DNA from: a virus
DNA: 64,000 bases
IMG/VR virus record: IMGVR_UViG_3300036790_000500
Span: 32,001-96,000 of that record
Reading direction: 5' to 3' (one strand)
Shown here in pieces: positions 21,097 to 43,204 of the stretch (positions are counted from its first letter, which is position 1; every line of letters begins with the position of its first letter). The notes under the pieces are model-generated. The model made no database searches. It worked only from the letters and a program-made list of their open reading frames with translations, and was not told the origin of the DNA. The translations under genes and the position numbers were made by a program.

Positions 21097-21483
21097 ATGA
21101 GTTACGGAGTTTCCTTTCCGCTCGCCTATGCGACCGGTTCGGTCGGTTACCTAGAGCCAACAAACGACATCGTTTCGGCCCTTCAGTCGAACGTCCGTTG
21201 CCTCCTCCTCACCAACTGGGGAGAGCGCGTCATGCACGCGGACATGGGTGGCAACTTCCGCGGCTTTCTGTTCGAACCGATGACGAACACCCTGCGCGCC
21301 GCCGTCGCCGCTCGGGTCAAGCAGCAACTATCCAAGTGGCTGCCGTTCCTTACCCTGACAGGCCTCACCGTCACGTTCTCCTCTGAGGACGCCTCGATTT
21401 CCGACCCTGGGTTTCGCGTCGAGATGGCAATGTCGTACGGCAACGTGCCCGTCAACCTCTCCCTGCTCTATCCGCCCTCCTGA
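21097..21483 (+). CDS. Baseplate wedge protein gp25-like
   Basis: NVRCLLLTNWGERVMHADMGGN..FLFEP, KWLPF (GPW/gp25 signature). Confidence 0.9.
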   Translation: MSYGVSFPLAYATGSVGYLEPTNDIVSALQSNVRCLLLTNWGERVMHADMGGNFRGFLFEPMTNTLRAAVAARVKQQLSKWLPFLTLTGLTVTFSSEDASISDPGFRVEMAMSYGNVPVNLSLLYPPS

Positions 21484-21491
21484 GGTCACCG

Positions 21492-23327
21492 ATGGCAAGC
21501 ACTCCCGCACCGCCGAACGTCTATAAGCAGCGCATCGTCAGCCTCCTCAACCGTGACTTCCGCTCGTTCAAGCGGGACCTCCTCACGTACAGTTCGGCCT
21601 ATGCCACGGCGTCCTTCTCGGACTACAACGAGTCCTCGCCAGGCATGTCCTTTCTGGAGATGGGTGCGTACATCGGCGACGGTCTGAGTTACATGCTCGA
21701 CCAGGCGTTCAATGAGGGCACCGACGCCGCGACGCAGATGAAGAACGTCCAGGCCAACGCTAAGATGCGCGGCTATCGACCGCTCGGCAAGCGTCCCTCG
21801 GTCGGTCAACTTGCCTGGGCCGTCGAGGTTCCGGCCACCGTCGACAACACGGGGGCCGTGGTTCCCGACGACAGTTACACGCCGGCGCTTCTCAAGGGCT
21901 CACAAGCCATATCCCAGAATGGAACGCCGTTCGAGACCCTTGCTGACGTCTACTTCACCGCTTCACTCGGGAGAATGGTGACCGGTTCGGCCTTTGACCC
22001 GACCACCGGTGTGCCGACCTCGTTCGCAATTCAATGCACAGTGGACGTGGTGGCCGGCAAGACCGTCACTGACTCCGTTGCAGTCACCGACTTTCAGCAG
22101 TTCCGGCGCATCGACCTCGGACAGACGGACGTCATTGAGGTGATTGACGTCTTCGACAGCCAGGGCAACGAGTGGTACGAGGTCGACTACCTCGCGCAGG
22201 ACTGGGTCTTCGTCGCTGAGACGAACACCAACGATGACTCCGACACCGTTCCGTACGTAATGAAACTCCAGACGGCGCCGTATCGCTTCGTCATCGACCG
22301 CGACATCACGACGGGCGTCTCCACGTTGGTGTTTGGGTCCGGAGACGGTCTGAACTTCGACGATGAGTTGGTCCCGAACGTGGGGTCATATGCCTTGCCG
22401 CTGGCTGGGAGACAGACCTATAGCACCTTCTCCATAGACCCCCAGAACTTCCTGCGAACGAGAAGCCTGGGGCTCTCACCGCACAACACGACCCTGACGA
22501 TAAACTACCGCGTCGGCGGCGGCTCGGCCACCAACGTCCCCGCTCGTTCCGTGCGTCAGGCCTCGAACGCCGTCCTGTCGTTCCCGAGTACGAACCTGAA
22601 CACCACCACACTCGGTGCAGTAGAGGGTTCAATCGGGTGCCTCAACCTCGCGTCCATGACGGGCGGCGGTGAGTCCGAGACCATTCGAGAAATCAAGGCC
22701 AATGCCGCGGCCTTCTTCGCTGCCCAGAACAGAATCGTGACCCGCGAGGACATCATCGCGCGAGCCTACTCGATTCCGGCCCCGTTCGGCATGCCGGCCC
22801 GTGTCTATGCAAAGCCGAGCCTGAGCGGCCGGTATGCGTTCGACCTGCACATGCTCTCGTACGACAGCACCGGAAACCTGGTCGTGGCCACGCCGACCCT
22901 GAAGTCGAACATGGCCACCTACCTCAGTAAGTTCAAAATGCTGACGGACGGAATCAACATCCTTGACGCGGACATCCTAGACCTGCGGGTCTACTTCGGC
23001 GTGACGGTCACGGCGGGCTCGAACGCCTCCCAGGTGCTCTTGAACTGCACGAACGCCTTGACCAGTTACTTCGCTCAGGGAAACCTCCAGATAGGTCAGC
23101 CGATTGTCGTGTCTAACGTCGTCGCCGTCCTCGACGGCCAGACCGGCGTCCAGGCGGTGACCGACGTCTCGTTCACGAACGTCTACGGCATCACCGATGG
23201 GCTCCAGTACTCGGACGACCGCTTTAACATCTCCCAAAACCTGCAGAACGGCATGCTGGTCTGTCCCCCTGAGGCGACCTTCCAGGTCAAGTTTCCCACG
23301 AAGGACATAGTCGGGAGCGCTTCGTGA
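21492..23327 (+). CDS. Baseplate wedge protein gp6-like (baseplate J family)
   Basis: RDFRSFK..L, FSDYNESSPG, AYIGD, FGSG, YRVGGGSATNV, GGGESET, AQNRIVTRED. Confidence 0.9.
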   Translation: MASTPAPPNVYKQRIVSLLNRDFRSFKRDLLTYSSAYATASFSDYNESSPGMSFLEMGAYIGDGLSYMLDQAFNEGTDAATQMKNVQANAKMRGYRPLGKRPSVGQLAWAVEVPATVDNTGAVVPDDSYTPALLKGSQAISQNGTPFETLADVYFTASLGRMVTGSAFDPTTGVPTSFAIQCTVDVVAGKTVTDSVAVTDFQQFRRIDLGQTDVIEVIDVFDSQGNEWYEVDYLAQDWVFVAETNTNDDSDTVPYVMKLQTAPYRFVIDRDITTGVSTLVFGSGDGLNFDDELVPNVGSYALPLAGRQTYSTFSIDPQNFLRTRSLGLSPHNTTLTINYRVGGGSATNVPARSVRQASNAVLSFPSTNLNTTTLGAVEGSIGCLNLASMTGGGESETIREIKANAAAFFAAQNRIVTREDIIARAYSIPAPFGMPARVYAKPSLSGRYAFDLHMLSYDSTGNLVVATPTLKSNMATYLSKFKMLTDGINILDADILDLRVYFGVTVTAGSNASQVLLNCTNALTSYFAQGNLQIGQPIVVSNVVAVLDGQTGVQAVTDVSFTNVYGITDGLQYSDDRFNISQNLQNGMLVCPPEATFQVKFPTKDIVGSAS

Positions 23328-24685
23328 TTTACAGAATTTATCCAACGGCCGACACGTTCCTAACGGACAACTACGTCTACCCGAACTACACCCCGATGAC
23401 CGGCGCGAACGTGGGTGCCGCTCCTGAGTTGCAGGTCTTCAAGCGAGCGGGGGTTTCGGGCGCGGTCGGTTCAATCGGTTCATCGAGCCTCGGTCGAATC
23501 CTGATGCAGTTCGACCTAACCCAGTTTTGTTCATTGACCGGTTCCGGCGACCTCCCCTCGAACGGCACGTTCACGCTGCAACTGAACCACAAGACGACCG
23601 GCGGCCGCCGTCCCACGAGTTTTGACCTCGTCGTGAGTCCGGTCCAGGCTCCATGGGACGAGGGCTCGGGCCAGGACGTTGAGCAACTCCAAGACGCAGG
23701 CTGGGCGAACTGGACGATGCGTGATTCCCAGAACTACTGGGGCACGCCGGGCGGCGACTTCTGGACCGACATCACCGCCTCCCAGCACTTCGATACGGGC
23801 CTTGAAGACCTCAGCGTCGATGTCACCTCGATGGTTGGAGACTGGCTGGGGAGCGAGTTCGCCAACTACGGCTTCGGGATTATGCTTACCTCGTCCATTG
23901 AGTCGAACTCGGTGTACATCGACTACTACAAGAAGGTCTTCTATGCGCGTGAAACGCAATACCAGGACCGCGCCCCATATCTCGAGTATCGAGCCAATGA
24001 CTTCACTCATGACGACCGTGTGAACGCGCAGTGGGGCCAACCGGTCACCCTGTACCTGTATAACGTCATCGGCGGCGTCTTTGCAGACATCCCGCAGCCG
24101 ATTCTGATGTCCGTCTCGGACGCCTCTGGAACCCTAACGAGCGTCACCGCAAGCCGCGGACTCGTTCCCGGGGTGTATAGCGCCTCCTTCGTGTTGCCCA
24201 CTGGCTCCTATAGCGGCTCTGTCTTCTATGACTTATGGGGTAGCGGTTCGTACGCCTATTCCACTGGAACGTTCTCCCTCGTGGGTGGACTGCCCATCAA
24301 CTCGATTCAACGCCCGCAACTCACGGCTCGGGTCCGGAACCTCCAAGACGAGTACTCCTGTGAGGACTCGCCTGTCTTGGAGGTGTTCTTTCGGAAGCGT
24401 CCATTGACGGTCCAGGTCGTGCAGACGGCCTCGCTCAGTCCAACTCCGTACATCGTGGAGCACGGCTACTGGGCCATTGAGAACGACAGCACCGGCCAAC
24501 GGGTGATTCCGTTCGGGACCGGTTCGCTCCAAGAGACGCGCCTCTCGTACGGGGCTGACGGCAACCAGTTTCGGCTCTTCATGTCAAACCTGCACGCAGG
24601 CAACGCCTACCGGGTCCTCTTCCTCGTGAACGACAACGGGGCCCAGCAGGTCATTGACAATCAGATTCTCTTCAAAGTCGTGTGA
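23324..24685 (+). CDS. Virion structural protein (DNRLRE-like beta-sandwich)
   Basis: PTADT, RILMQFDL, WDEG, DVTSMVGDW, NYGFGI, FYARE...PYLE. Confidence 0.65.
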   Translation: MIYRIYPTADTFLTDNYVYPNYTPMTGANVGAAPELQVFKRAGVSGAVGSIGSSSLGRILMQFDLTQFCSLTGSGDLPSNGTFTLQLNHKTTGGRRPTSFDLVVSPVQAPWDEGSGQDVEQLQDAGWANWTMRDSQNYWGTPGGDFWTDITASQHFDTGLEDLSVDVTSMVGDWLGSEFANYGFGIMLTSSIESNSVYIDYYKKVFYARETQYQDRAPYLEYRANDFTHDDRVNAQWGQPVTLYLYNVIGGVFADIPQPILMSVSDASGTLTSVTASRGLVPGVYSASFVLPTGSYSGSVFYDLWGSGSYAYSTGTFSLVGGLPINSIQRPQLTARVRNLQDEYSCEDSPVLEVFFRKRPLTVQVVQTASLSPTPYIVEHGYWAIENDSTGQRVIPFGTGSLQETRLSYGADGNQFRLFMSNLHAGNAYRVLFLVNDNGAQQVIDNQILFKVV

Positions 24686-24690
24686 GTTAA

Positions 24691-27615
24691 GTGACCGACA
24701 TCTTTCAACTCTTTGATGGCACGATGGGCGCGGGTGCGGCCGCGTCCGTCTCTAATCAAAGCGCCGGTTCGTTCTCAAGTGTCACGACCGATAACGACCT
24801 CATCTCGACGCTGGCCTCCGGCAGCGACGCGGTGTCCCTGCTCGTCGATTACTCAGACTTCGCGAACTTCGTCACGTTCAACTCAGCCCAGAGTTACGTG
24901 ACCGTGACGGCCGACCAGGTCGTCAATGAGTATCCGATGGGCGGCTCCGCCAACGACCTGCAGGTCTTCATCAACTCGCTGGACGGGTACCAACAGTACT
25001 TTCTGACGAATTGGCCGTCATGGGCCGGTCACCTGCGGCTGAACCCCGCCGTCTCCGCGTCGTACGTCAGCATCTCTGACAACGGAGTCCAGGACGGCGT
25101 GGCCCGAACGGCCATGCTCAGTCCCGGTACCGGGTCAATCACCGTCCAGGCGTGGATTGATGTGCCGGTCCTGACCGGGAGCAGCGACGTGCAGGTGGTC
25201 TTTCAGAAGGCCGCTCCCGGTGGGACTGACGGCTATACCGCCTTCGTCTCCGGCTCAGCGGTCTACTTCCAGGTCTCGTCCGGCTCTACGCTGGCGACGG
25301 TCTCGGGTTCCCTATCGCTGATGCCGTCGTTCTTCTCGGCCGTCCTCGACCGCGGCTCTGCGACGGGTTCACTCTCGATGTACGTCGGTACCTCGGGCAC
25401 GTACCCGGTCCGCACCGACTTCACGTCGGTGCTCCTCGGGTCTCGCTTCGACCTCGCGTCCGGCTCGTTCTACATCGGCTCCGGCTCAGTGGTGAGTAAG
25501 GTCGTGCGACCGTTCACGGGCTCGTTGGACGACGTCAGCGCATGGTTCATTCCGCGGGCCTGCCAGGACATCACCGGCTCGTACAACAGGAGAACGTTCG
25601 CGCAGTACGGACTAACGGGGCTTTGGCGTTTCAATGACGCATCACCGAGTACACCGTCCGTCATCGGCGGAGTAATTCACGATTCGTCCGGTAACAGGCT
25701 GGACGGCCGAGTCCAGATGTACTTCTCGGGTTCCAGGGGCTCGGGGTCGCTGACCAACGATTCGGTCGACCCAATTCTCTCGTTGGATGACCCGACCGTC
25801 GTGAGTTACGTCGTGAACGCGCAGGTCACCGGCGCTCTCTACGACCGAAATAACCAGAGTTTAATCTTCAACCTCTTTCCGGACGCGTTCTCGAGCGTCG
25901 ACCCCGCGTCACAAGCGGTGTTCGAGAGTTTTACGTTGATTCTGGCACGGCACTACGACCGGCTCAAACTCTACATTACGCAACTGCCGAACCTTCGTCG
26001 GGTGAACTACGACGAGTTCGACCAGGCACCGGACGAACTGCTGGACCAGGTCGGCGACTTCATGGGTTGGAACCTCCAGGGCAGTTTCGTGACGACTGAC
26101 GCCCTGAAGTACTTCCTCGGTCGAAACGTGACCCTTGGGCCCGAGGGCAACGCTCCGCTCGACACTCAACTCTTCGACATCAAGGCCCAGTTCTGGCGTC
26201 GAGTGCTGCAGAACCTGGTGTATCTGTACAAGACGAAGGGAACCCGAGAGGGCGTTGAGGCCCTGATGCGGGCCTATGGCGTCGATGATAACTTCGTTCG
26301 TCTGAAGGAGTACTCGAATCGAAACGAGCAGCAACTCGTTCTCAATCGAGTAGAAGCCGAGAAAAGCGTGTTCGCGCTTCAGGTCTCCGGGTCCGTGGCC
26401 GTCTCAGCGGCGGCGTTAAACTCCTCGCTTACGTCCGACCGCGGCGACTTCTCAATCGAGGCCCGCGTGCGGTTTCCTCTCCCGGATGATGACCTGATGC
26501 CGCCGACGCAACTGTCGGGGGTCATTGCGTCGCTCTCCTCTGGCTCATCGGCGGTCTCCGTCTGGTACAGCAAGCCCCTGGCCACGTCGCTCACCGGAAA
26601 CATCTACGTCTCGAGTTCCGCGGGAGTTCTGCAACTCACGTCGGCGTCCGTGTTCGACGATAACTTCTACAACCTGAGCGTGGTTCGCGAACACGTCACC
26701 GGTACGATGACCCTCGACGCCCGGCGGTACTCGAACGGTGACTTGGTCTTCGTGACCAGTTCCGTGGCCGTGAGCGGGTCCGGAGCCTACCCCGGTTTCG
26801 TTCCGTACACGGGCTTCGCCGTCGGCTCCACGAACACGAACGGTGAGTTTTGGGTACAGGAGACCCGTGCTTGGTCATCCCATCTTCTGGCGGATGAGGT
26901 CGATGCGCATGCGCAACACTTTGAGAGTTACGGGCGCGACGAGAGCCATAGGAACGACGACCTTCGAGTACACTGGCGGCTCGCCGACGGAGCATACGTC
27001 ACCGCGACCGGAGCACTCACCGTTCTAGACTCGACTCCGTACGGCGTCAACGGCTCAGGCACGAACTTCGTCCCTAACACCCAGCCGTTCACGAAGTTCC
27101 TCGTCGACTACGCGTATATTCCGAGCGTCGATTGGAACGGGCAGAAGGTCAGAATCTTCTCTGGCTCGACAATCGACCCGCAGGACGCCTGGCACGACGA
27201 CCGGTTCGTGGCCCTCGAGTTCAACATGTACGACGCTCTAGACGAGGACATCTCTCATCTAATGACCTCGTATCAGGAGTTGAATAACGTGCTCGGTCTT
27301 CCGGTGAATCGGTATCGGGAGGAGTACGAGGGCCTGCAGCAGATGCGGGAGACGTACTTCAAACGGCTCCAAGGCCAACTCAACTTTAGAGTATTTGTGG
27401 ACATGCTGGACTTCTTCGACACGTCATTCGTCACGATTGTGCAGAGGATGCTGCCGGCCCGGGCCCTCTTCAAGGGTGATGAGTTGGTCGTAGAGAGCCA
27501 CATGCTCGAGCGGCCCAAGTACCAGTATCAACTTCGACCCGTCCATGAGGGTCTGATTGACATCTCTGGGTCCATTTCGGTGACGGACCTCTATGATATC
27601 TACTGCTCACGATGA
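24691..27615 (+). CDS. Large baseplate/tail protein (gp7-like core with two LamG-like domains)
   Basis: NLVYLYKTKGTREGVEALMRAYG wedge motif; LamG-like FTGSLDDV..W and LRVHWRL. Confidence 0.75.
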   Translation: MTDIFQLFDGTMGAGAAASVSNQSAGSFSSVTTDNDLISTLASGSDAVSLLVDYSDFANFVTFNSAQSYVTVTADQVVNEYPMGGSANDLQVFINSLDGYQQYFLTNWPSWAGHLRLNPAVSASYVSISDNGVQDGVARTAMLSPGTGSITVQAWIDVPVLTGSSDVQVVFQKAAPGGTDGYTAFVSGSAVYFQVSSGSTLATVSGSLSLMPSFFSAVLDRGSATGSLSMYVGTSGTYPVRTDFTSVLLGSRFDLASGSFYIGSGSVVSKVVRPFTGSLDDVSAWFIPRACQDITGSYNRRTFAQYGLTGLWRFNDASPSTPSVIGGVIHDSSGNRLDGRVQMYFSGSRGSGSLTNDSVDPILSLDDPTVVSYVVNAQVTGALYDRNNQSLIFNLFPDAFSSVDPASQAVFESFTLILARHYDRLKLYITQLPNLRRVNYDEFDQAPDELLDQVGDFMGWNLQGSFVTTDALKYFLGRNVTLGPEGNAPLDTQLFDIKAQFWRRVLQNLVYLYKTKGTREGVEALMRAYGVDDNFVRLKEYSNRNEQQLVLNRVEAEKSVFALQVSGSVAVSAAALNSSLTSDRGDFSIEARVRFPLPDDDLMPPTQLSGVIASLSSGSSAVSVWYSKPLATSLTGNIYVSSSAGVLQLTSASVFDDNFYNLSVVREHVTGTMTLDARRYSNGDLVFVTSSVAVSGSGAYPGFVPYTGFAVGSTNTNGEFWVQETRAWSSHLLADEVDAHAQHFESYGRDESHRNDDLRVHWRLADGAYVTATGALTVLDSTPYGVNGSGTNFVPNTQPFTKFLVDYAYIPSVDWNGQKVRIFSGSTIDPQDAWHDDRFVALEFNMYDALDEDISHLMTSYQELNNVLGLPVNRYREEYEGLQQMRETYFKRLQGQLNFRVFVDMLDFFDTSFVTIVQRMLPARALFKGDELVVESHMLERPKYQYQLRPVHEGLIDISGSISVTDLYDIYCSR

Positions 27616-27630
27616 TGTGGCCATGGGGGC

Positions 27631-27637: not shown

Positions 27638-27648
27638 AAGAAACACAG

Positions 27649-28398
27649 ATGGCAGACAACACCATACTCAACCTCGGAACGGGCGGCGACACCCTTCGCA
27701 CTGAGGACGTCGGCGGCGGCGTCAAGGTTCCCGTTTCGAAGATTCACACGGGAGCCTCGGACGTGGACGGCGGTCCCGTCACGACCGCTAATCCGTTTCC
27801 CGTGCAAGTCGTCTCCGGCTCCCAGACAAGCCTGTTGCAGGGAGGCGTGCTCGCGGGACCCGCGAATCCGATTTCGACGCAGACAGTGTCCGGTTCCCTA
27901 GTCAGTCTGCTACAGGGTGGGCTCGCCGTCTCGGCCGGCAACGCCGTTCCGGTGCAGGTCGAGAATCCGGTGAGCATCACGGCGAACGGAAGCACCGTTT
28001 CGTGGACCGCACAGTTACCGGTCATTGAACCATGCGGCCAGGTCGTCTCCGGTTCAACGGTCTCGACGGTCAACTACGCCTTCGGTGACTTCAGTACGTC
28101 GGGCTCCGCCAATCAACTCGTGGGACAGCAGGGAACAGGCGCAGGCAAGCGCATTCGCGTGCTTTCGGCCGTCCTCTCCTCGGCGAACGCCGTGAACGTA
28201 CGCTTCACGACGGCGAACCCAAACGGTTCGACCGGCAGCATCAGCGGTCAGTTCTTCGTGGCGGCATCGGGCGGCTTCGTCCTGCCCTTCAACCCCCACG
28301 GTTGGTTCCAAACGAACGTCAGCGAGAGCCTGAACGTCGCCACGACGGGTGGCACCGACGTCGGAATCGGAATTACCTGGGTCCTTGCGGGGCAGTAA
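27649..28398 (+). CDS. Virion structural/fibre-like protein with SGSxxxLLxGG repeats
   Basis: G/S/T/V-rich; two tandem ~25-aa repeats; resembles the ORF at 63603. Confidence 0.65.
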   Translation: MADNTILNLGTGGDTLRTEDVGGGVKVPVSKIHTGASDVDGGPVTTANPFPVQVVSGSQTSLLQGGVLAGPANPISTQTVSGSLVSLLQGGLAVSAGNAVPVQVENPVSITANGSTVSWTAQLPVIEPCGQVVSGSTVSTVNYAFGDFSTSGSANQLVGQQGTGAGKRIRVLSAVLSSANAVNVRFTTANPNGSTGSISGQFFVAASGGFVLPFNPHGWFQTNVSESLNVATTGGTDVGIGITWVLAGQ

Positions 28399-28408: not shown

Positions 28409-29926
28409 ATGCCCCTCTCCAGCGTCACCCGGGACGCCCTCGGCGGCTGGTACTTTCCGTCGGGCTCGACCGAGTGGGCGACCCTGCTCGCCGGGTCCGG
28501 CCTCGGGCTGCCGGTCTCCGTCTGGTCGCTCCAGGAGAGGTCCGGCGGCGTCTTCGGCGACAGCGTGCAGGGGAACGGGAACAACGACCTCGTCGTCGGT
28601 ACCTCGACGGCGGAGTACGTCCCTGGATGGTCTCGCATCGGCATCATTCCCAGCTTCAGCAACACCACCAATCCGAACCTGAATATCGCGGTCAGCAGCT
28701 CACTGCTCCTCACGGTCGTGAGGCCGAGGGCCCTCCAGACTGCCTCTACCGGGACCGTCGTTGGCCTCGGGGTCAATACCTCGTATCGGGCCATTGCCTT
28801 TACCGGCGAGGTCGGCGTACAGCCGGGTCACACCGGTTCCTGGATGTACGCCACCATCGACGGCTCGGCCCAGCCCACCGGGTCTCTGCCTGTCACGTCG
28901 GGCCAGGTCTATCTCGTCGCTCTGCGTGTCAACCTGACGGCCGGCTCGACCGGACTCGTCACCGAGTACGAGACGATAACCCAGACGCCGTACACGGTCC
29001 CTCCGAACACGGGCGCCGGAATACTCTGGGGAGCGGCGTTGACGAATACCGCGAACGTCGACTTCCTCTACGGCGCCCTCTGGCAGGGCCCCACGGCGGA
29101 GATGACGGACACGCAGGTCCAGTCGCTCTTCAACCTGATGAAGTACGGGACGGTGGCCCGCGGCGTCACCCAGGACACGACCTCGGGCTGGCGCGCCCCG
29201 CGGGACCCCACCGAGTGGGCCCTGCTGCTCACCGGCTCCGGCGTTCCCGTCCCGAGCGCGGCCTACAACATGACCGAGACGAGCAGTCCGACGGCGGACA
29301 ACGTGGGCCAGGACATGTTCTACAGCGACCACCTGACCGCCGGCACCGTCGGCGTCGGCGGGACGTTCCCCGGTTGGTCGCGACCGGGATTCCAGACGTA
29401 CGACGGCGGCGCGTACGGTGTGCAGACCGCGAACACCCTGACGGGCGCCTCCCGGGCCGTCCTCATGTACTACGGCATCAGCGGCTCCGCCGAGCTGCTC
29501 AACATGCTCAACTACATGGGCAACGGCCTCGACGTCTCCCTCGTCTCGGGGAGCATCTACGCCGTCGGCGGAAACCGAGTGGGGACCGGCGTGCGGGGGT
29601 CCGTCCCCGCGGCGTTGCCCAGCGTTCGGCCCTTCCTCTACGTCGTCAACGACACGGCCGGCACCAACAAGTACTACTCGACCGTCGAGAGCGTGGTCGG
29701 CTCGGCCGGCATCGTCGACGCGAACACCATCACCCTCGGCTCGAACGTCAGTTCCCAGCCGGCCCCCTCCGGCACGCTCCTCTACGCCGCCGTCTGGACC
29801 GGCAGTTACGCGGAGATGACGGACACCCAGGCGGCGACCCTGCTGCGGCTGGCGCAGTTCGGCACGCTGTCGAGCGGGTCGGCGGTGGCGCGCAATCTCC
29901 TCATGCTCATGGGTTACGGGAGTTGA
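28409..29926 (+). CDS. Virion protein with tandemly duplicated beta-rich (lectin-like) domain
   Basis: Two ~245-aa units, each starting VTxD..GW..P...TEWA.LL.GSG and ending LY.A.W.G..AEMTDTQ. Confidence 0.7.
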   Translation: MPLSSVTRDALGGWYFPSGSTEWATLLAGSGLGLPVSVWSLQERSGGVFGDSVQGNGNNDLVVGTSTAEYVPGWSRIGIIPSFSNTTNPNLNIAVSSSLLLTVVRPRALQTASTGTVVGLGVNTSYRAIAFTGEVGVQPGHTGSWMYATIDGSAQPTGSLPVTSGQVYLVALRVNLTAGSTGLVTEYETITQTPYTVPPNTGAGILWGAALTNTANVDFLYGALWQGPTAEMTDTQVQSLFNLMKYGTVARGVTQDTTSGWRAPRDPTEWALLLTGSGVPVPSAAYNMTETSSPTADNVGQDMFYSDHLTAGTVGVGGTFPGWSRPGFQTYDGGAYGVQTANTLTGASRAVLMYYGISGSAELLNMLNYMGNGLDVSLVSGSIYAVGGNRVGTGVRGSVPAALPSVRPFLYVVNDTAGTNKYYSTVESVVGSAGIVDANTITLGSNVSSQPAPSGTLLYAAVWTGSYAEMTDTQAATLLRLAQFGTLSSGSAVARNLLMLMGYGS

Positions 29927-29929
29927 TGG

Positions 29930-30247
29930 ATGGCGCTCGGCGGCATCATCATTTACATCCAGAACCTGCAGGACGCGACGCCTCCTGCGCCTCCCGTAGT
30001 CCCGTCTCGGCTCTTTAATCGCAGAAATTGGCTCTATCGTCCGAGACGCGGAATGATGGTGTCTGGGCGTCAGCCAGCGAGTGTGCCGACCGGCATGTTC
30101 ATTGGCTCCGCCGCAGTCACGCGGACACGATGCACGCCGCTGAAGAAAACGTTCGTGATTACGACCACAGACAGCCTAGACATCGGTGGCGACGTGATGA
30201 CCTCGGCCGTCGGTCCGAGCGGTTGCATCTCAAGGTCCGGTCCCTAA
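29930..30247 (+). CDS. Hypothetical protein
   Basis: Fills the gap between structural genes. Confidence 0.5.
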   Translation: MALGGIIIYIQNLQDATPPAPPVVPSRLFNRRNWLYRPRRGMMVSGRQPASVPTGMFIGSAAVTRTRCTPLKKTFVITTTDSLDIGGDVMTSAVGPSGCISRSGP

Positions 30248-30249
30248 CA

Positions 30250-35678: not shown

Positions 35679-37513
35679 CCACTTTCATCGGAAAGGGGTC
35701 TGCCACCGACTCACAAGTCACGACTTCAGCGGGAACGGTCGGTTCAACCTTTGGAAACCGTCCGCCGGCCGGCCCGGTCTTCACGGCCACGGCGACCTCC
35801 GAGAACGTCACCCAGCAACTCGCAGACGTTCTCAAGGGCCTCGGTGACAACGGCTCGGACCTCGTCGTAAACGCGTACCTCTCCTCGTGCACGTTCGTGG
35901 CGCAGGCCCTGAACATCGATTGGAACGTGAACAGCGGAGCGACCGTTGGCCAGACCGCAGACCTCATGCGGGCCGCGGTCGTCACACGCTTTCAGGAAGC
36001 CGCCCCCATCATCGCCGCTGCAGCGAGCCAGGGATACGTGTTGCCGGCCGACCCAACGCCGACGTTCAATGCCATCAACGCGACGCGGGCCCTCTTCGCT
36101 CAGTTGACGATTAGTGACGACGTGTCCACTCAACTCAGCGAGGCGGCCATTGGCCTCAGCCAGGTCGTGGCGGCCTATCAGGCCGGAACGATAACGTTCA
36201 ATCGGAGCCAACCGGCCGCACAATTATCTTCGTTTGAGGTCTCAGTCGATGGAATGACTTCGCCGTCCGGTGACGCGCTCGCCGACGTACTGGGATACCA
36301 GCCCGATGCTAACATCGTGAAGCAGCAGGCCGCCCTGTCGTCACTCGCCGGACTCGACTTCAGTAAGCGCCAGCCGTACCTGCTCTTTACCGCCGATGTC
36401 ATCACGAACGGAAAGAGACAGAATGGAACAATCGTTGCCTGGCAGGTGATGCATGACGCGTCTGCCTACAGCGTCGTTCGCACCGACGTCTTCGGTCAGG
36501 TCACGTACCCCGCGATTACGCTGGCCAATGCGGACGTCCAGGCCTCGACGGCCCAGTTGCTAACCGACAACAACTTTCAACAGGTCCTCTCGTATTACGA
36601 CTGGATTACGCCGTCGAACGTCTATGCGTTCGTCGATAGCGGCACGATGCCGAACACGCTCTACTCGTATACCGTAACGGGCCTGCAAGCGATTGCACCC
36701 TCGTCCCCGTTCCTGTTCAACGTTCCCATGAGCGCTCTCTACTTGTCCGCCGCCCAGGCGGCCCAGGTCCAGGCCCTGATAGCGGCCGACCTGACGGAGT
36801 TCGCTGACTCGGGTTCAATCAATTCCGTTAGTCCGTATCCGGCCCTCGCCCAGGCGGTGTATGGCGATTCCAGTCTGGGTTGGATTCTGGCGGGAGTAAA
36901 CGTGCAGGCCAGCCAGACCCGCGGCGACGACTACGACGCGACCCTCCTGTTGACGTACATGGGTGCCCAGGCCACGGACATAATCCAAGAGGCCGCGGCC
37001 GGCCGCCTGTTCGTCCCGAACGACATCAACTCCGTCCATGCGAACGTCGATGCCGCGATTTCCTCGTATGGGGTCTCCCAGACGCTCTTGGCGGTCTTGG
37101 ATGCGACCGGCATGACGCTGTTCATTTCGGGTAAGGACGACCCATTGGGTTCGCAGCCGACCGTTGAGGCACTCGCGGACGCCACTGGCGGCCTCGCTAA
37201 GGTGCTGTCAGCCATCGACCCGCAGACGGCCACATTGGACCCACAGGTCTTGGCTGCGGCCCTATCCGTTCCCACCACTGATTCCGCCGCTAAGTCCTAT
37301 ACTTTCCAGGAGGTTTCGTCCGGCGCGCCCACGGCCGTTCACACGTTCCAGTTCGGTGTGAACGCCGGGTCTTCGCCTCCAGTCGCGGTCGCTCCCTCTC
37401 TCTCTTCTGTTCTTGGAACGCAGACCATCGACCTTACGACCTACATTGGCATTTCCTCTCTGATGCAGTTGCTGAGGACCGTGTACGACTTCTATCCGGG
37501 GTCATTGACTTAA
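35675..37513 (+). CDS. Virion structural protein
   Basis: 612-aa A/S/T-rich ORF in the tail cluster; one FN3-like motif (FVDSG..PNTLYSYTV). Confidence 0.65.
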   Translation: MTTFIGKGSATDSQVTTSAGTVGSTFGNRPPAGPVFTATATSENVTQQLADVLKGLGDNGSDLVVNAYLSSCTFVAQALNIDWNVNSGATVGQTADLMRAAVVTRFQEAAPIIAAAASQGYVLPADPTPTFNAINATRALFAQLTISDDVSTQLSEAAIGLSQVVAAYQAGTITFNRSQPAAQLSSFEVSVDGMTSPSGDALADVLGYQPDANIVKQQAALSSLAGLDFSKRQPYLLFTADVITNGKRQNGTIVAWQVMHDASAYSVVRTDVFGQVTYPAITLANADVQASTAQLLTDNNFQQVLSYYDWITPSNVYAFVDSGTMPNTLYSYTVTGLQAIAPSSPFLFNVPMSALYLSAAQAAQVQALIAADLTEFADSGSINSVSPYPALAQAVYGDSSLGWILAGVNVQASQTRGDDYDATLLLTYMGAQATDIIQEAAAGRLFVPNDINSVHANVDAAISSYGVSQTLLAVLDATGMTLFISGKDDPLGSQPTVEALADATGGLAKVLSAIDPQTATLDPQVLAAALSVPTTDSAAKSYTFQEVSSGAPTAVHTFQFGVNAGSSPPVAVAPSLSSVLGTQTIDLTTYIGISSLMQLLRTVYDFYPGSLT

Positions 37514-37514
37514 G

Positions 37515-39326
37515 ATGCCGCGCAAGTTCATACTGGGACTCGGGGCGCTCGCGCCGGCGGCCCTATCGGCCAACGTCGGTGGTGTGCAAGCCACGATTCT
37601 CACCGGTTCCATCCTCAATGGAATCACGAGCGTCCTCTCGACGAACAACTCCCAGATAGTCACGCAACTCGGCTCGAGCGCCGGCAATCAAACGCAAAAT
37701 GCAGTCTCCTCCGAGAGCAGCACGACTGCCTATCACTCGACCCTGTTCGAGGACTTCGGTGTGGAGGCGACGCCGACTTACAACTTCTATACGCCTGACG
37801 AACAGACCAATGCCCAGGCGAACCCCTCTGCGAGTCTCGCGGACCTTCCGCGTTACGTCACGGTGACATGGAACCCGACGCCGGTCCAACGCATCCTCAC
37901 GCCGGCCGTGAAGGGAGTCCGCAGTTACGGGGGCCACGGTCCGGTGCTGCCCGCCATTCCCATCTCGACCGCGAAGAGGTCCGTGAGCAACGGCTACGTG
38001 TCCCCGGGAGCGGTGCAGGCGCTGCTCGTTCCACCCGTTCAGGCACCCACACCGCCGACTTTCAGTGAGGACCTCTTCCTCGCCGACCCGACCGCAGGTG
38101 GCCTCAGCGCGGCCGCGGCGATAGACAGCGGCTCACTCTACCACACGCCGGCGGTCACTCCACCGTCCCTACGCATCCGGGTCAACTTCGTCGACCCGTC
38201 CATCGCCGGTGCCCTCAATTCGAATCGAATCGCCGTTGCGACCGACCAGGTCCACCTAACCTCCCTCGGTTCACTCTCGAAACTCATGGGAGGCCTCGAG
38301 GTCATCTCTGAGTTCAATCAGGACGTTCCCCTTAGGAACCCGATTCCGAAGTTTCCGACGCCGACCCAGACCCCGGGGCTGGCCTACGTCGGTTACGTCC
38401 TCGAGAGGTATACCCTAGACGTCAGCGGCTCCATGACGCTAACCAAGACCGTGGACCTCGACGACGCGACCGACGACAACTACGTCGATAGAGAGGTCAC
38501 CTACGGTGCGAACTACACGTATCGGATTCGCACCGTGGTCCAGTGGACCCACGCGGCCAACGTGGACTTTCCGGGCTCCTCAAGCCTCGTGTTGCTCCCG
38601 GCGTTCGACACCTCGGCCGGCTCCAACGGCCAGCAGTCATCGTTCTACGCGGGTCAGTGGTCCGACTGGTCACGGGTCCAGGTGCTTGATACCTCAACTC
38701 CGTCCTATCCAGACGAGTTTACCGTTCGTCCGGTCTCACCGCTCGGACAGGTTCACGTCTCTTGGAAGATGCCCGCGGACCCACAGCAGGACCTCTCCTC
38801 CCTGTATCTCCTACGGGCAACTCTTGTCCGCGGTCGGCTCTCCGATTGGGTCCAGGTCGGCCAGTTCGTGCCCGGAAACGGGCTCTACGTCGATTCCCAC
38901 GTGGCTCCCTTCGAGGAGAGCCACACGAGTTACGTGTACTCGATGTACTCGGTGAGTTACCACGGTGCCTTCTCGACCCTCTGTGAGAAAGTACAGGTCC
39001 GACTGACCGACCGATACAAGTACATCGGGGAGGAGCCGCTCGTCCTGCTCGGACCGGCCGGGGACGACCCGTTCGACCCGGCCTCCGGAGCGGCCCCTCC
39101 GCCCGTGACTGAACTTGTTGCGGCCTCCCGAGCGGTCTTTTACGTCCGCGGAGCCAGCAGCACCCTTCCGCTCTTTGGAAGGACGTATACCGTTGAGATT
39201 CAATCGCTCTCGACAGGGGAGCGGGCCGAGGTGACCCTCGAGGTCGACACGACGGACGTAGACCAAGTCCCCGCCCCGTCGACTCCGACTCCGGTCGTGG
39301 CCGTCGGGCGTTCGCCCTCCACCTAA
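37515..39326 (+). CDS. Virion structural protein, FN3-like
   Basis: YVDREVTYGANYTYRIR, VHVSW, YVD...YVYSM. Confidence 0.65.
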   Translation: MPRKFILGLGALAPAALSANVGGVQATILTGSILNGITSVLSTNNSQIVTQLGSSAGNQTQNAVSSESSTTAYHSTLFEDFGVEATPTYNFYTPDEQTNAQANPSASLADLPRYVTVTWNPTPVQRILTPAVKGVRSYGGHGPVLPAIPISTAKRSVSNGYVSPGAVQALLVPPVQAPTPPTFSEDLFLADPTAGGLSAAAAIDSGSLYHTPAVTPPSLRIRVNFVDPSIAGALNSNRIAVATDQVHLTSLGSLSKLMGGLEVISEFNQDVPLRNPIPKFPTPTQTPGLAYVGYVLERYTLDVSGSMTLTKTVDLDDATDDNYVDREVTYGANYTYRIRTVVQWTHAANVDFPGSSSLVLLPAFDTSAGSNGQQSSFYAGQWSDWSRVQVLDTSTPSYPDEFTVRPVSPLGQVHVSWKMPADPQQDLSSLYLLRATLVRGRLSDWVQVGQFVPGNGLYVDSHVAPFEESHTSYVYSMYSVSYHGAFSTLCEKVQVRLTDRYKYIGEEPLVLLGPAGDDPFDPASGAAPPPVTELVAASRAVFYVRGASSTLPLFGRTYTVEIQSLSTGERAEVTLEVDTTDVDQVPAPSTPTPVVAVGRSPST

Positions 39327-39329
39327 GTA
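39323..39329 (+). promoter_or_regulatory. Putative late promoter CTAAGTA
   Basis: Recurrent motif overlapping the upstream stop codon. Confidence 0.35.
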
Positions 39330-39352
39330 CACTGACCAGACAGGGAGACACT

Positions 39353-40066: not shown

Positions 40067-40069
40067 GGC

Positions 40070-40255: not shown

Positions 40256-40273
40256 GCCTAGGAGATTATTACA

Positions 40274-41269
40274 ATTTCGTTTAAAACCTTCAATCTGCAA
40301 GACGACTTCAGTCCGCTGAGCACCGCGGTAAACGAGACGATTATCATCACAGGGTCAATCATCTCGAACATCCTGGACGTCAAGTACTACCAAAACATCG
40401 CCTCGGGCTCAGTCGGCGTAGACCAGGGCGGGTACTTCGAGACCGTCTATGACAGTGCCCCGAGTTCGTCCCTCTCGACGGCGCTCCTCGACATAACGTA
40501 CGGCCAGGCGACCGGCTCGAAATACAACGTTCAGGCGACCGTTACGTCGAGCCTCGTCGAGAAGGTGAAGATTTATCGCCAGTTCGCGGCGGTCCTCCTC
40601 GGCAGTCCGGACGCGACCTTCACGATTAACTCGACCACTCGACAGGAGGCCGTCTTCATCGCCATGAAGCGGAACCTGGCCAAGGACGAACTCAAGAAGG
40701 GAACGGTGGCCCTGACGATTAACTCGTCGGCGCCGTCCCAGTACACCGCCTCCGATGCCGGAGCGGCGGCGACCTTCAAGCAGTCCCTCGGCGGCGACTA
40801 CGCGCCCCTCAAGTACAACGGCACGGGCTCGGAGGTGGGGCAGGTCTGGTACAACGCTGGCATCATCGTCCTGCATCCCGACTCGACCTGGGGGGCCGTC
40901 CCGGTCTGGTCGGGGACCGTGACGCTGATTAACGCCCAGTCGTCGGGCTGCATCAACAACGTCGTTGACGGCGTCCGCACGCACCTCGAGAACCTGCAAC
41001 TCAACAACCAAACGAACCTCCAATCGTCGATTTACTTCTGTCGGGCCTTCAACAGCGAGTTCAACTACTCGTCGAACCCGACCTTCGTGGACTCGACCGG
41101 CCTCATTCTGGTAACCTCAGGCAGCAACATCCTCACGACCCGCACGTACGTCACGACCATCGGCCTGTACGATGAGAACGACAACCTGCTCGCGACCGGC
41201 AAGGTAAACAAGCCTGTCTTGAAGTCGCCCGAGACTGAAGCGATTTTCCGACTTCGTTTGGACTACTAG
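40274..41269 (+). CDS. Tail/baseplate structural protein with probable non-canonical ATT start
   Basis: Frame open from 40262; AGGAG at 40260-40264; ATT-SFKTF resembles paralog start MPAFKKF; C-terminal EFNYSSNPTF...YVTTIGLYD...LLA.GK...P. Confidence 0.7.
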   Translation: MSFKTFNLQDDFSPLSTAVNETIIITGSIISNILDVKYYQNIASGSVGVDQGGYFETVYDSAPSSSLSTALLDITYGQATGSKYNVQATVTSSLVEKVKIYRQFAAVLLGSPDATFTINSTTRQEAVFIAMKRNLAKDELKKGTVALTINSSAPSQYTASDAGAAATFKQSLGGDYAPLKYNGTGSEVGQVWYNAGIIVLHPDSTWGAVPVWSGTVTLINAQSSGCINNVVDGVRTHLENLQLNNQTNLQSSIYFCRAFNSEFNYSSNPTFVDSTGLILVTSGSNILTTRTYVTTIGLYDENDNLLATGKVNKPVLKSPETEAIFRLRLDY

Positions 41270-41320
41270 TCGTACTCACTTCAAAGCACTTATCCCGTTG
41301 CTGTCGAGGTCTCTCCCTAA

Positions 41321-43204
41321 GTGCCAGCGTTTAAGAAGTTCGGACCGGGCGACCAACTCGATAGCGTGATGGTCCTTGAGCCGAGTTACGCGCTCGCCTC
41401 GGGAACGAACGGCTGGCACGGCTCTCCGGACGGCTCCGGCTCCATATCGCTCTACGGCGGGACCCGTCGAAGTTCGACCGGTGTGGTAAAGCGAATCGAG
41501 TACCAGTCGCTGAATCCCATCGCGGAACAGGTCGGCAACCCGATTCTGCAGATGCCCACAACGGCGTCAATCCAGTTCGTTTACATGACGAGCGACGAGA
41601 TTGACCTGAACTATCAGGTGACCGCGACCCGGTGGGGCGCCGAGCACTGGGGTACCGTCGGCCGGCTCTATCAAGACTACTACCAGATTGACCCGGACTA
41701 CGTGACCGGGTCGTACGACTACTACTGCCTGTACTTCAATCAGTTCTCACAGAACATCGTCAACTTCCCGTCGCCGTACGCCGCGGGGCTGCCGCTGACG
41801 GGTTCATTCACGGTTGAGGGCTGGGTTAAGCCGTTCATCACGGCCAGTAACTCCCAGGACTTCACGATTGCCTCGATGAATCGGGTCTTCTGGTTCGGCA
41901 TCACCGGCTCGACCGGCCAACTCGTGATGTCGTCCTCCTACGGCGCCCTCACCTCGTCGTATGGCCCGGCCGCGCGCCGGTGGTCCCACGTCGCCTGCAG
42001 TTTCAATGCAACGACCGGCACCGGCTCGTTCCTGATTAACCTCAACGATGCCGGGCAGTTCAAGCAAACGACGTTCTCCGCCAGCCTCGGTGGCTTTCAG
42101 CCGGTCTTTAGCCTCGGTGCGAAGGCCTCGGGTTCGACCGAGGTCGCGTCGACCTCGGTCGGACAACTGTATCGGGTCTTCCATGGCTTCATGGGGGAAC
42201 ACCGGCTCTGGTATCAGGCCCGTACGGTGGCGCAACTCTCTGCCTCATGGAACGTTCAACTGACCGCGTCCAGTCCTGTCCTCACGGGTTCAGTGATAAG
42301 GACCGGCTTCACCGAGGGCCCGCTTGCCACGTTCCCGACGGACACGAACTCGAACTCACCGCGAAACGGCTCCGGCACCGTTGACTGGGCCTCCCTTGAG
42401 CAACTCTCCGCCAACGCGGCCGCCGGTCGCCTTCCCTGGGGCTACCTGGTCTCATTCGATGACCGAATTGCCCCGGTCTGGCAGCCGAACGACAACGTCT
42501 CGTTCCGTCCCTATAAGAACCTCAACGGTCCACCGGACTCCAGTCCGAACCTGGTTCAGGCCCTCTCCCTCACGGGTTCAGGGCTCACGGGCCTGGGATG
42601 CGCGCCTGTGCAGCGGATGCTGGTCATCGACGTGCCGCAGGCGTTCTATGGCAGGCAACTTCAACCGAACAGCGTGTCCGTCACCGATTGGACGTACTCC
42701 TCGAGTTCCTACGGGCTGGTGCGGACCCTGGTCGACGACGGCCGCGGCAACCTCTATCTCTCCGGGTCGGCCTGTTCCTCCTCCCTTGCGAGCAAGGAGG
42801 ACTACGCCGGTGTGCAGTGGAACAAGGTCGGCAACGTGTTCTACGGCGAAGGTCTCATCGTCATCAAGGACCAGTCGCTTCTGGACTTCGGCCGGCTTGA
42901 CGGAGTCTCTAACGACCCCAGCAACGTGTTGCAGGTCGGCTTCATGGGACAGACCCGGACTCCGGTGAAGACCCTGATGTGTCGGCTCGACCACGGCGAG
43001 TTCAACGCCTCGAATAACCCCACGTTCTATACGACCGGCTCGGCCGGGGAGCGCATCGCCCGGCATCCGAGCGGCTCCGTCTACGTCTCCACCGTTGGCA
43101 TCTATAACTCAGACCGTGAGTTGGTCGCCGTCGCGCGCCTGGCCGACCCCGTGCGCAAGCGGACCCGAGACCGGATAAACATTCGGTTGCGCGTCGATTT
43201 CTAG
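41321..43204 (+). CDS. Tail/baseplate structural protein with LamG domain (paralog of 40274)
   Basis: FTVEGWVKP, WSHVA, FHGFMGE (LamG); EFNASNNPTF...YVSTVGIYN...LVAVARL..P. Confidence 0.78.
   Translation: MPAFKKFGPGDQLDSVMVLEPSYALASGTNGWHGSPDGSGSISLYGGTRRSSTGVVKRIEYQSLNPIAEQVGNPILQMPTTASIQFVYMTSDEIDLNYQVTATRWGAEHWGTVGRLYQDYYQIDPDYVTGSYDYYCLYFNQFSQNIVNFPSPYAAGLPLTGSFTVEGWVKPFITASNSQDFTIASMNRVFWFGITGSTGQLVMSSSYGALTSSYGPAARRWSHVACSFNATTGTGSFLINLNDAGQFKQTTFSASLGGFQPVFSLGAKASGSTEVASTSVGQLYRVFHGFMGEHRLWYQARTVAQLSASWNVQLTASSPVLTGSVIRTGFTEGPLATFPTDTNSNSPRNGSGTVDWASLEQLSANAAAGRLPWGYLVSFDDRIAPVWQPNDNVSFRPYKNLNGPPDSSPNLVQALSLTGSGLTGLGCAPVQRMLVIDVPQAFYGRQLQPNSVSVTDWTYSSSSYGLVRTLVDDGRGNLYLSGSACSSSLASKEDYAGVQWNKVGNVFYGEGLIVIKDQSLLDFGRLDGVSNDPSNVLQVGFMGQTRTPVKTLMCRLDHGEFNASNNPTFYTTGSAGERIARHPSGSVYVSTVGIYNSDRELVAVARLADPVRKRTRDRINIRLRVDF

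Follow-up and report, generated by a model that had tools for sequence, protein, structure and literature searches.

Why should one short peptide recur many times over in the outer proteins of a tailed phage and stand at chance in the remainder of its proteome? The window we analyzed, 64,000 nucleotides of the virus record IMGVR_UViG_3300036790_000500 (positions 32,001 to 96,000), comes from an uncultured T4-like phage and raises this question for the tripeptide [S/T]-G-S. Measured against composition-keeping shuffles, the tripeptide occurs 18 times in a 974-aa protein (24691–27615) where 1.63 copies are expected, 11 times in a 627-aa protein (41321–43204) where 1.35 are expected, and 5 times in a 453-aa protein (23324–24685) where 0.69 are expected; for the 974- and 627-aa proteins the observed count was reached in none of 3,000 shuffles each. 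The terminase (50058–51737) and the Mre11-Rad50 fusion (44805–47927) contain no copy. Our recount reproduces exactly the three counts given in a preliminary description of this DNA and agrees with its two zeros; its rough prediction of about two copies for the 974-aa protein lies close to the shuffled value, and the enrichment it reported survives correction for composition. Across 13 outer proteins (6,884 aa) there are 80 copies versus 13.5 expected, and the remaining proteome holds 15 versus 12.3, with no depletion in cytoplasmic phage proteins. The excess is real, and it amounts to 5- to 11-fold over chance in the outer baseplate and fiber proteins of this phage, of related phages, and of three cultured ones.

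The preference is sharply defined. In the block from 21097 to 43204, the two tripeptides in greatest excess are SGS (33 versus 6.1 expected) and TGS (24 versus 4.8). Permutations of the same composition (GSS 7, SSG 6, GTS 2) are at chance, and the excess therefore cannot be explained by local composition. The 57 copies in this block are encoded by 38 distinct 9-mers, which places the signal at the level of protein and bears out the earlier remark that varied codons argue against a DNA repeat. The companion tripeptides listed with it fared unevenly: SAS, TAS, and SGT are enriched approximately 2-fold, but SSS is not enriched. Among the 13 outer proteins the first position is S (46) or T (34), with all other residues near chance; the middle position is G (80 versus 13.5 expected) and weakly A (23 versus 12.9), and the third is S (80 versus 13.5) and weakly T (22 versus 11.6), with V or I on the flanks.

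The carriers, all encoded on the + strand, are concentrated among the baseplate genes. Two inner wedge proteins at 21097–23327, gp25-like (128 aa) and gp6-like (611 aa), have one copy each (0.7 expected for the gp6-like protein); neither is enriched, and both were used as internal controls. The 453-aa gene sits between the gp6-like gene and the gene for the 974-aa protein; it encodes a baseplate-module protein of a virus-only family, for which a protein atlas gives unnamed viral clusters only, and its orthologues in three related genomes (G001, G002, and G003) are likewise enriched. The 974-aa outer baseplate protein has two LamG-like jelly rolls (residues ~108–362 and ~534–845) and a helical linker domain, and the Foldseek matches of its AlphaFold2 model (mean pLDDT 79.6) are laminin and neurexin LG domains. 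A 249-aa protein (27649–28398; 5 copies versus 0.9 expected) contains units of the form NPxPV..V-SGS-..LLQGG. A 505-aa protein (28409–29926; 8 versus 1.45) has two LamG-like jelly-roll halves and is matched to Laminin_G_3 clusters in the protein atlas both by features and by structure. The overlapping open reading frame at 28474–30018, taken earlier for the gene, is a wrong-frame artefact (GC3 0.54, versus 0.91 in the frame 28409–29926). Next lies a 758-aa protein of fiber or spike size (30028–32304; 5 versus 1.6) in which the looser motif [ST][GA][ST] occurs 20 times; its orthologues in G001 (1,021 aa; 13 versus 2.8) and G002 (1,237 aa; 11 versus 2.5) also carry the tripeptide. The 627-aa protein has a Laminin_G_3 domain at residues 155–306, and a 234-aa protein (40565–41269; 2 versus 0.3) is related to its C-terminal part. 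Finally, a 518-aa protein, whose gene lies directly 3′ of the major capsid gene, starting at 63597 and continuing beyond the end of the window at 64000 to 65153 (L003:597–2153), holds 17 copies in tandem units of ~21–22 aa and ends in a beta-sandwich domain; its AlphaFold2 model is confident for residues 410–518 only, and the 249-aa protein is its paralogue (BLASTP E 4e-17). The preliminary description had overlooked the 505- and 518-aa carriers.

That description placed the motif only in virion surface proteins, which is too broad. It holds for the outer baseplate and fiber proteins named above, but the major capsid protein, although exposed, has 1 copy versus 0.6 expected, and the gp6-like protein and three fiber-size proteins of 906, 612, and 603 aa (32958–39326) show no significant enrichment. 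Its statement that the motif recurs in unrelated folds is correct only in part: three of the main carriers (974, 627, and 505 aa) are LamG-like jelly rolls.

Enrichment, of 4- to 16-fold, extends to 120 of 120 homologues of the 974-aa protein, and homologues of 24%–26% identity from phages of 32%–54% GC are enriched as well; altogether the tag is retained in more than 120 homologues, at identities down to 24% and GC contents of 32%–66%. At conserved sites S and T replace one another in the first position, G gives way rarely to A or S in the second, and the third prefers S over T over A; N or D is almost never seen. Within the 974-aa protein family, S149 is invariant, conservation reaches 90% or more at many motif residues, and serines and threonines inside motifs are more conserved than those elsewhere. 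The motif is present in at least 10% of sequences at 29 alignment columns, versus 4–8 for same-composition permutations; counting any occurrence, the figures are 75 and ~54. There are approximately 30 persistent sites, where the only change is between S and T. The proposal of a selected modification sequon draws support from the sharp positions, the hydroxyl-keeping substitutions, the persistent sites, and, as described below, the lack of the tag in the same fold of phages outside the clade and a glycosyltransferase pair found in every carrier; the modification itself is something that we infer.

When the motifs are mapped on the 974-aa model, their contexts prove to be mixed, including two-residue hairpin tips, strand starts, long loops, and a helix end. 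Four of the 18 copies are tight two-residue hairpins and about half lie immediately before a strand; at positions 187, 197, and 617, and roughly at 566, a strand-end Ser is followed by a G-S loop. With only four such hairpins, and N and D so rare at conserved sites, we rejected a two-residue type II′-like turn as the account of all copies. We likewise rejected a generic feature of the Laminin_G_3 fold. At least seven Laminin_G_3 domains of cyanophage S-SKS1 have 7 copies versus 5.6 expected, and three Laminin_G_3 proteins of phage immuto (139.9–142.4 kb), itself a carrier, have 1 versus 1.9. On the equivalent strand, before the hallmark strand, the S-SKS1 LamG domain has G-D where the carrier clade has G-S, and one aligned hairpin of PDB 4DQA reads TGK. 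In T4, the proteins gp6–12, wac, gp34–37, and Hoc together give 5 SGS versus 4.5 expected and 2 TGS versus 4.7.

Every genome with the excess also encodes a conserved pair of soluble GT4-type glycosyltransferases. The first member is a 443-aa enzyme encoded just upstream of the window (L112:3094–4425); the second is the first ~400 residues of a 1,031-aa fusion (706–3801, + strand) in which Pfam recognizes GT4-type, GT9-type, and GT2-type modules. The 443-aa enzyme is conserved like the capsid protein (73% identity in G001, 55% in G002, 40% in G003), and orthologues of the N-terminal module of the fusion are found across G001–G003, immuto, and Mel-JY01. The pair is present in seven of seven genomes with the excess (G000–G003, RM378, immuto, and Mel-JY01), whose genome-wide motif ratios are 1.8–3.5; T4, S-SKS1, and the searched part of LR756511 have no homologue of the 443-aa enzyme, and their ratios are 0.8–1.4. 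The seven carriers form one clade, and the co-occurrence of enzymes and motif is therefore a single evolutionary event with no independent contrast. The E-x7-E motif is kept in both enzymes, the exception being the G003 copy of the first, which has lost the second Glu. Among solved structures, the 443-aa enzyme is matched best by chlorovirus B736L (PDB 3OY2, E 3e-9), over the nucleotide-sugar-binding half only. A Cpn10-like co-chaperonin gene lies between the two glycosyltransferase genes, and a PD-(D/E)XK nuclease adjoins the pair in every carrier.

Directly upstream of the baseplate genes, and in the same orientation, is a candidate glycan island (4128–18080, + strand) whose gene content varies among G000–G003 and whose proteins, assigned by Pfam and family matches, are all predicted to be soluble. 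Its glycosyltransferases are of GT2 and GT4 type, with two CgeB-like proteins and a weak GT9-like match (E 0.0066) that falls short of the Pfam cut-off. Its other genes encode a B12 radical-SAM methylase, a methyltransferase, an AraD-like enzyme, RpiB, a transaldolase/FSA, a cupin, an NDP-sugar dehydrogenase, two HldE-kinase-like proteins, and one HldE-adenylyltransferase-like protein. The HldE domain I matches score 49–111 bits against a curated cut-off of 345 and the domain II match 107 against 181; a family search saw neither GmhA nor GmhB alongside them. In the 1,031-aa fusion the Pfam Glyco_transf_9 match covers residues 575–666. The GT9 modules are not conserved in G003 or the isolates, and comparison of the fusion (E ≤ 0.01) and of the 300-aa GT9-like protein (E ≤ 1) with PDB sequences gave no match.

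The explanation that we favor, with modest confidence, is that [S/T]-G-S on outer virion proteins is an O-glycosylation tag. A hydrophobic-[S/T]-G-S-hydrophobic sequence would be a selected recognition tag on outward-facing baseplate, spike, and fiber proteins, and the sugar would probably be accepted by the Ser in third position, where it stands at a hairpin tip or the start of a strand. O-glycosylation would take place in the host cytoplasm, carried out by the phage's own soluble enzymes: the GT4-type pair may add the first sugars, and the island could then extend and methylate the glycan to give a virion sugar coat. The motif statistics, their conservation, the lack of the motif in the same fold elsewhere, and its co-occurrence with the GT pair are results of the analysis; that a sugar is attached, to this residue and by these enzymes, is what we infer from them. 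Our literature searches found no published report, whether chemical, mass-spectrometric, or structural, of a glycan on these phages. Other observations weigh against the reading: the single clade formed by the carriers of the GT pair, the lack of enrichment in the exposed capsid protein, in the 906-, 612-, and 603-aa proteins, and in the three immuto LamG proteins, the many copies placed where a Gly-Ser turn or a strand cap would suit the structure, and the want of any depletion in cytoplasmic proteins. More tentatively, we suggest that a globally distributed T4-like clade, known from soil, freshwater, marine, and hot spring habitats and including the cultured RM378, immuto, and Mel-JY01, shares one O-glycosylation code, with the GT4 pair reading [S/T]-G-S and hypervariable islands elaborating upon it; with the same reserve, each phage might display a glycan "serotype" of its own on the apparatus with which it recognizes its host.

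The main alternative is a clade-specific structural habit. [S/T]-G-S would then be an unmodified sequence favored for type II′-like two-residue hairpins and beta-strand N-caps in the beta-rich outer proteins of the clade, spread among them by descent and module exchange, and the glycosyltransferases would have some other target, for example a small molecule, DNA, or the envelope of the host. We think this unlikely, though it deserves serious consideration. The hairpin-like copies and those that precede a strand in the 974-aa model are suggestive of it, as are the jelly rolls common to three main carriers, the placement of the motif within the structural repeat of the 518-aa protein, the derivation of the excess from retained sites rather than many more origins, and the nuclease neighboring the GT pair. 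A structural habit would not, however, be expected to be clade-specific across unrelated families, and the T4 tail, the S-SKS1 LamG domains, and some immuto LamG proteins do without the motif. Sites that as turns would normally tolerate N, D, and G hold only S, T, and A; some copies are found at a helix end or in long loops; and a specificity of five- to six-fold at each of three positions is probably more than turn propensities ordinarily give. Action on DNA is a weak variant. RM378 has no ThyA-family hydroxymethylase, and a Tet/JBP search, run without a positive control, gave no match.

The motif statistics would also fit some other trans-acting factor of the clade, whether it phosphorylates, acylates, or phosphoglycosylates the tag or is an assembly chaperone gripping strand-turn elements, and the Cpn10-like gene between the two glycosyltransferase genes counts in favor of such a factor. 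We regard such a factor as improbable: no kinase, acyltransferase, or fiber-chaperone family is found among the clade-conserved neighbors, and the glycosyltransferases are the only conserved nearby enzymes with no assigned substrate. Composition, codon bias, or DNA-level repeats can be dismissed almost entirely. Serine, threonine, and glycine abound in the carriers, and the contig shows strong word avoidance (GATC 0 versus 368 expected), but the shuffles, the permutations, the diversity of 9-mers, and the persistence of the excess in relatives of 32% to 66% GC, low-GC homologues included, refute an artefact.

An O-glycosylation tag of this kind would have partial precedents. Mycobacteriophages encode glycosyltransferases that glycosylate the virion (Freeman et al. 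2023, Cell Host Microbe, as cited in PMC12619734 and PMC12801897), and both systems involve a tailed phage with soluble enzymes of its own that are proposed to add sugar to its virion proteins. As those citing accounts describe them, the mycobacteriophages are siphoviruses whose glycans are on the C-termini of capsid and tail-tube subunits; in the T4-like myoviruses, by contrast, the candidate sites are internal ordered tripeptides in the baseplate, spike, and fibers, the capsid is unenriched, and the glycan is predicted from the genes. Among bacteria, TibC/TibA and Aah/AIDA-I offer a cytoplasmic GT-B enzyme that hyper-glycosylates serines with small neighbors in a repetitive beta-rich surface protein, TibA being heptosylated at N-S-G-G and T-S-A-A (PMC4358343). 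The phage island encodes a GT9-type domain and HldE-like proteins that may make a sugar of the nucleotide-heptose kind. Its GT9 modules have no sequence match to TibC and are not conserved in the clade, whose conserved pair is of GT4 type, and its matches to the heptose pathway fall under family cut-offs, with GmhA/GmhB not found. We rejected membership in the BAHT family (TibC/Aah), whose TibC-related GT9-like catalytic core goes with an iron-finger and an N-terminal beta-barrel: the match is to Pfam Glyco_transf_9 only. The O-GlcNAc transferase GtfA/GtfB of serine-rich repeat adhesins, encoded by two adjacent GT4-type GT-B genes (PMC6973325), acts in the cytoplasm on Ser-x-Ser-type repeats that further enzymes elongate, and its two-GT4 arrangement resembles that of the phage. 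GtfB is non-catalytic, however, whereas both phage enzymes keep E-x7-E in most genomes, and the targets are disordered serine-rich tracts in the one case and folded jelly rolls and fibers in the other. A catalytic and non-catalytic pair of that type was accordingly rejected, the similarity of the 443-aa enzyme to GtfA (4PQG, E 0.71) being negligible. For the S-layer of Kuenenia stuttgartiensis, a protein heavily glycosylated with methylated sugars, a G-[T/S]-X O-glycosylation motif was proposed from 10 glycopeptides (PMC5088730). As in the phage tag, Gly just precedes the presumed acceptor, but the Kuenenia motif is cellular and a looser two-residue pattern; together with the TibA sites it provides a precedent for Gly beside an O-glycosylated Ser. 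Chloroviruses, too, encode soluble glycosyltransferases, and one of these GT4 enzymes is the closest solved match of the 443-aa protein. The capsid protein of chloroviruses bears N-linked glycans, at atypical sites peculiar to these viruses.

Three carriers (RM378, immuto, and Mel-JY01) are cultured, and the idea is open to direct test. Should [S/T]-G-S prove to have a structural role alone, it would remain a strong signature of the clade, useful for spotting outer virion proteins in metagenomes. If sugars are indeed attached to it, the tag would be the first glycosylation code of a phage virion to be defined by sequence, and it would lie on proteins in contact with the host. Glycans coating the baseplate and spike could alter adsorption, resistance to host proteases, adherence to polysaccharide or mucus, and immune recognition, and it would account for the large islands of sugar genes in many large environmental phages.

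The excess of the Ser/Thr-Gly-Ser tripeptide ([ST]GS) in the outer virion proteins of this phage survives correction for composition. The preliminary description had counted, by hand, 18, 11, and 5 copies in the 974-aa (24691-27615), 627-aa (41321-43204), and 453-aa (23324-24685) proteins and had seen no copy in either the terminase or the Mre11-Rad50 fusion; all of these counts are exact, and composition predicts 1.63, 1.35, and 0.69 copies for the three proteins, with 0 of 3000 composition-preserving shuffles attaining 18 in the first or 11 in the second. When all tripeptides of the structural block are ranked, the two most over-represented are SGS (33 copies, 6.1 expected) and TGS (24, 4.8 expected). 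Since the same letters in other orders sit at chance (GSS 7, SSG 6, GTS 2), local composition is excluded as the cause. A cause at the level of DNA is ruled out as well: the 57 copies are encoded by 38 different 9-mers, bearing out the varied codons described earlier, and the enrichment extends to IMG/VR relatives that share only 24-26% identity and come from phages with 32-54% GC. Across the whole 107-kb contig GATC is absent (368 expected) and AGCT occurs 13 times (256 expected), the remaining 4-base palindromes being close to expectation; this deficit looks like strong restriction-site avoidance, and as a result of the GATC avoidance Gly-Ser in the motif is almost never encoded GGA-TCN.

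Two carriers had been overlooked: a 505-aa gene (28409-29926; 8 copies, GC3 0.91) and a 518-aa gene directly after the capsid gene, starting at 63597 and running past the window end (L003:597-2153), whose repeat units of about 21-22 aa hold 17 copies. An ORF at 28474-30018 (514 aa, Arg-rich, GC3 0.54) is a same-strand, wrong-frame shadow of the 505-aa gene. Three homologues of the 518-aa protein (P0133, P0135, and P0136) share only its C-terminal beta-sandwich domain (58-63% identity) and lack both the repeats and [ST]GS. No enrichment was found in the capsid protein, the portal, the gp6-like and gp25-like proteins, or the 906-, 612-, and 603-aa proteins at 32958-39326, and the sheath, with 3 copies relative to 0.8 expected, falls below the enrichment criterion.

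These genes belong to a contig of 107 kb, estimated to be 52% complete and represented by 64 kb in the window, whose origin is a very divergent T4-like phage. Its recognizable genes encode proteins resembling gp25 (21097) and the wedge protein gp6 (21492), a large terminase (50058) and a portal with intein and HNH insertions (51737), both of T4 type, and a gp23-type capsid protein (61470); every gene from about 700 to 43200 lies on the plus strand. The portal gene (51737-55486, 1249 aa) is an interrupted T4-type gp20, with matches to both an HNH endonuclease and an intein splicing domain. In a single 1040-aa protein (44805-47927), kept in the three relatives G001, G002, and G003, an Mre11-like phosphoesterase is joined to a Rad50/SbcC-like ATPase. 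No copy of the T4 late promoter TATAAATA was found, and no clear common promoter was evident on inspection of upstream regions by eye.

The motif has the shape of a tag. In 13 outer proteins it occurs 80 times where 13.5 are expected, and in the rest of the proteome 15 times where 12.3 are expected. Position 1 is S (46) or T (34), other residues being near chance; position 2 is G (80, 13.5 expected) or, with a smaller excess, A (23, 12.9 expected), others lying at or below chance; position 3 is S (80, 13.5 expected) or T (22, 11.6 expected), and no other residue is clearly in excess (1.7-fold at most, from small counts). V and I are enriched in the flanks. Enrichment, by 4- to 16-fold, is seen in every one of the 120 database homologues of the 974-aa protein. 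In an alignment of 73 sequences, the motif is present in half or more of the sequences at 11 columns and in 10% or more at 29, relative to 0-1 and 4-8 columns, respectively, for same-composition permutations. At conserved sites S and T interchange, G is rarely replaced by A or S, the final residue is S, then T, then A in order of preference, and N or D almost never appears. S149 is invariant, conservation reaches 90% or more at many motif residues, and Ser and Thr are better conserved within motifs than elsewhere in the protein (P = 0.004 and P = 0.0007).

Could the motif simply be required by a fold? The 974-aa family has no sequence match among solved structures, and an AlphaFold2 model (mean pLDDT 79.6) depicts two LamG-like jelly rolls linked via a helical domain. 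In 4 of the 18 copies a Ser ends a strand and the next two residues, G-S, form a hairpin loop; about half of the 18 stand immediately before a strand, and the remainder lie in long loops, with one at a helix end; the 17 repeat copies of the 518-aa protein are not placeable, the repeat region having a pLDDT below 50 in the AlphaFold2 monomer. The claim that the motif recurs in unrelated folds was only partly right, because the 505-aa protein also consists of two LamG-like jelly rolls and a Laminin_G_3 domain occurs in the 627-aa protein; it stands for the 453-aa family and for the repeat family of the 249-aa (27649-28398) and 518-aa proteins, neither of which has any sequence relation to LamG. 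Three controls speak against such a requirement. In T4, the proteins gp6-12, wac, gp34-37, and Hoc are free of any excess (SGS 5, 4.5 expected; TGS 2, 4.7 expected). In cyanophage S-SKS1, three proteins rich in S, T, and G contain at least seven strong Laminin_G_3 domains and hold 7 copies, 5.6 being expected, and the hallmark F-T-x-x-x-W strand is preceded there by G-D, whereas G-S is invariant in this clade; these domains were found with the Pfam model, our custom LamG HMMs giving no significant match in T4, S-SKS1, or LR756511. Finally, three Laminin_G_3 proteins of Flavobacterium phage immuto (139892-142416), a carrier of the glycosyltransferase (GT) pair described below, have 1 copy relative to 1.9 expected, although they may not be virion proteins. 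A motif that is clade-specific and common to unrelated families inside the clade points to a putative clade-specific trans-acting factor.

The initial 18 kb of the window is a sugar island. Its transferases are a 1031-aa protein (706-3801) in which GT4-, GT9-, and GT2-type modules are fused, stand-alone GT2 and GT4 enzymes, two that are CgeB-like, and a weakly GT9-like one. The island also encodes a methyltransferase and a B12 radical-SAM methylase, RpiB, an AraD-like enzyme, a cupin, a transaldolase/FSA, an NDP-sugar dehydrogenase, and three HldE-like proteins, two resembling the kinase and one the adenylyltransferase. We compared the contig with G001 (185 kb), G002 (99 kb), and G003 (320 kb); the identity of their LamG proteins to the one here is 62%, 39%, and 26%, respectively. 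A conserved core spans the window start and the region just upstream: a PD-(D/E)XK nuclease; a 443-aa GT4-type transferase (L112:3094-4425) that is 73%, 55%, and 40% identical in G001, G002, and G003, as conserved as the capsid protein; a Cpn10/GroES-like co-chaperonin (L112:4435-4728, 565-272 bases upstream of the window start) between the two conserved GT genes; an NDP-sugar epimerase/dehydratase; and a second GT-B enzyme, which here forms the initial ~400 residues of the 1031-aa fusion and is free-standing in G003. Outside the core, the gene content of the island varies among these genomes. Because neither the B12 radical-SAM methylase (6497-8104) nor the AraD-like/RpiB/kinase/transaldolase block (10053-12682) has an orthologue in G001, G002, or G003, the island is a mosaic around a conserved GT core.

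The GT pair is also found in immuto (gp181 and gp180) and Microcystis phage Mel-JY01, and the 443-aa GT has homologues in Rhodothermus phage RM378, where the sole match to the second GT falls inside the first GT gene, and in the uncultured record LR756508. Genome-wide, [ST]GS counts in carriers of the 443-aa GT are 111 (31.6 expected) in the contig under study, 106 (57) in G001, 101 (41.5) in G002, 117 (65) in G003, 52 (19.4) in RM378, 117 (47.5) in immuto, and 134 (55.3) in Mel-JY01; in T4, S-SKS1, and the searched part of LR756511 (175 kb), where no homologue was found, they are 16 (20.7), 82 (65.4), and 28 (20.7). The enriched ORFs of immuto lie directly after the baseplate wedge gene; among them are two annotated tail spikes, of which one has 26 copies. 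S-SKS1, which is without the GT pair, has a sole enriched protein, of 1727 aa (9990-15173, minus strand; 15 copies, 4.9 expected). In tblastn searches of cultured phages, the 974-, 518-, and 627-aa and gp6-like proteins matched at most a few members of the same clade.

Since all carriers belong to one clade, the link between GT and motif amounts to a single evolutionary association. The earlier proposal that [ST]GS is a sequon for modification, which we read as O-glycosylation by phage GTs, is the best-supported, if unproven, reading, and we regard it as slightly more likely than not. We consider the main rival, a structural habit peculiar to the clade, less likely, if seriously to be entertained. 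The GTs may instead modify a host-envelope polysaccharide, but the island encodes no membrane protein, all of its products being predicted to be soluble. DNA glycosylation is not supported, because a ThyA-family hydroxymethylase is missing from the complete genome of RM378 and a search run without a positive control found no match to Tet/JBP.

Modification of the virion proteins themselves would have parallels. In work cited in PMC12619734, mycobacteriophage virions are described as glycosylated by phage-encoded GTs, with glycans at the capsid and tail-tube C-termini. TibC heptosylates TibA serines that have small neighbours (PMC4358343), a G-[T/S]-X motif has been proposed for a planctomycete S-layer (PMC5088730), and GtfA/GtfB target Ser-x-Ser repeats (PMC6973325). 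The phage system is a member of neither the BAHT nor the GtfA/B family: the 1031-aa fusion and the 300-aa GT9-like protein have no sequence match among solved structures, and a GtfA/GtfB-like pairing was abandoned because both conserved phage GTs retain the catalytic E-x7-E motif. It would nevertheless work along similar lines, with a tag, an enzyme pair, and targets that differ from theirs.
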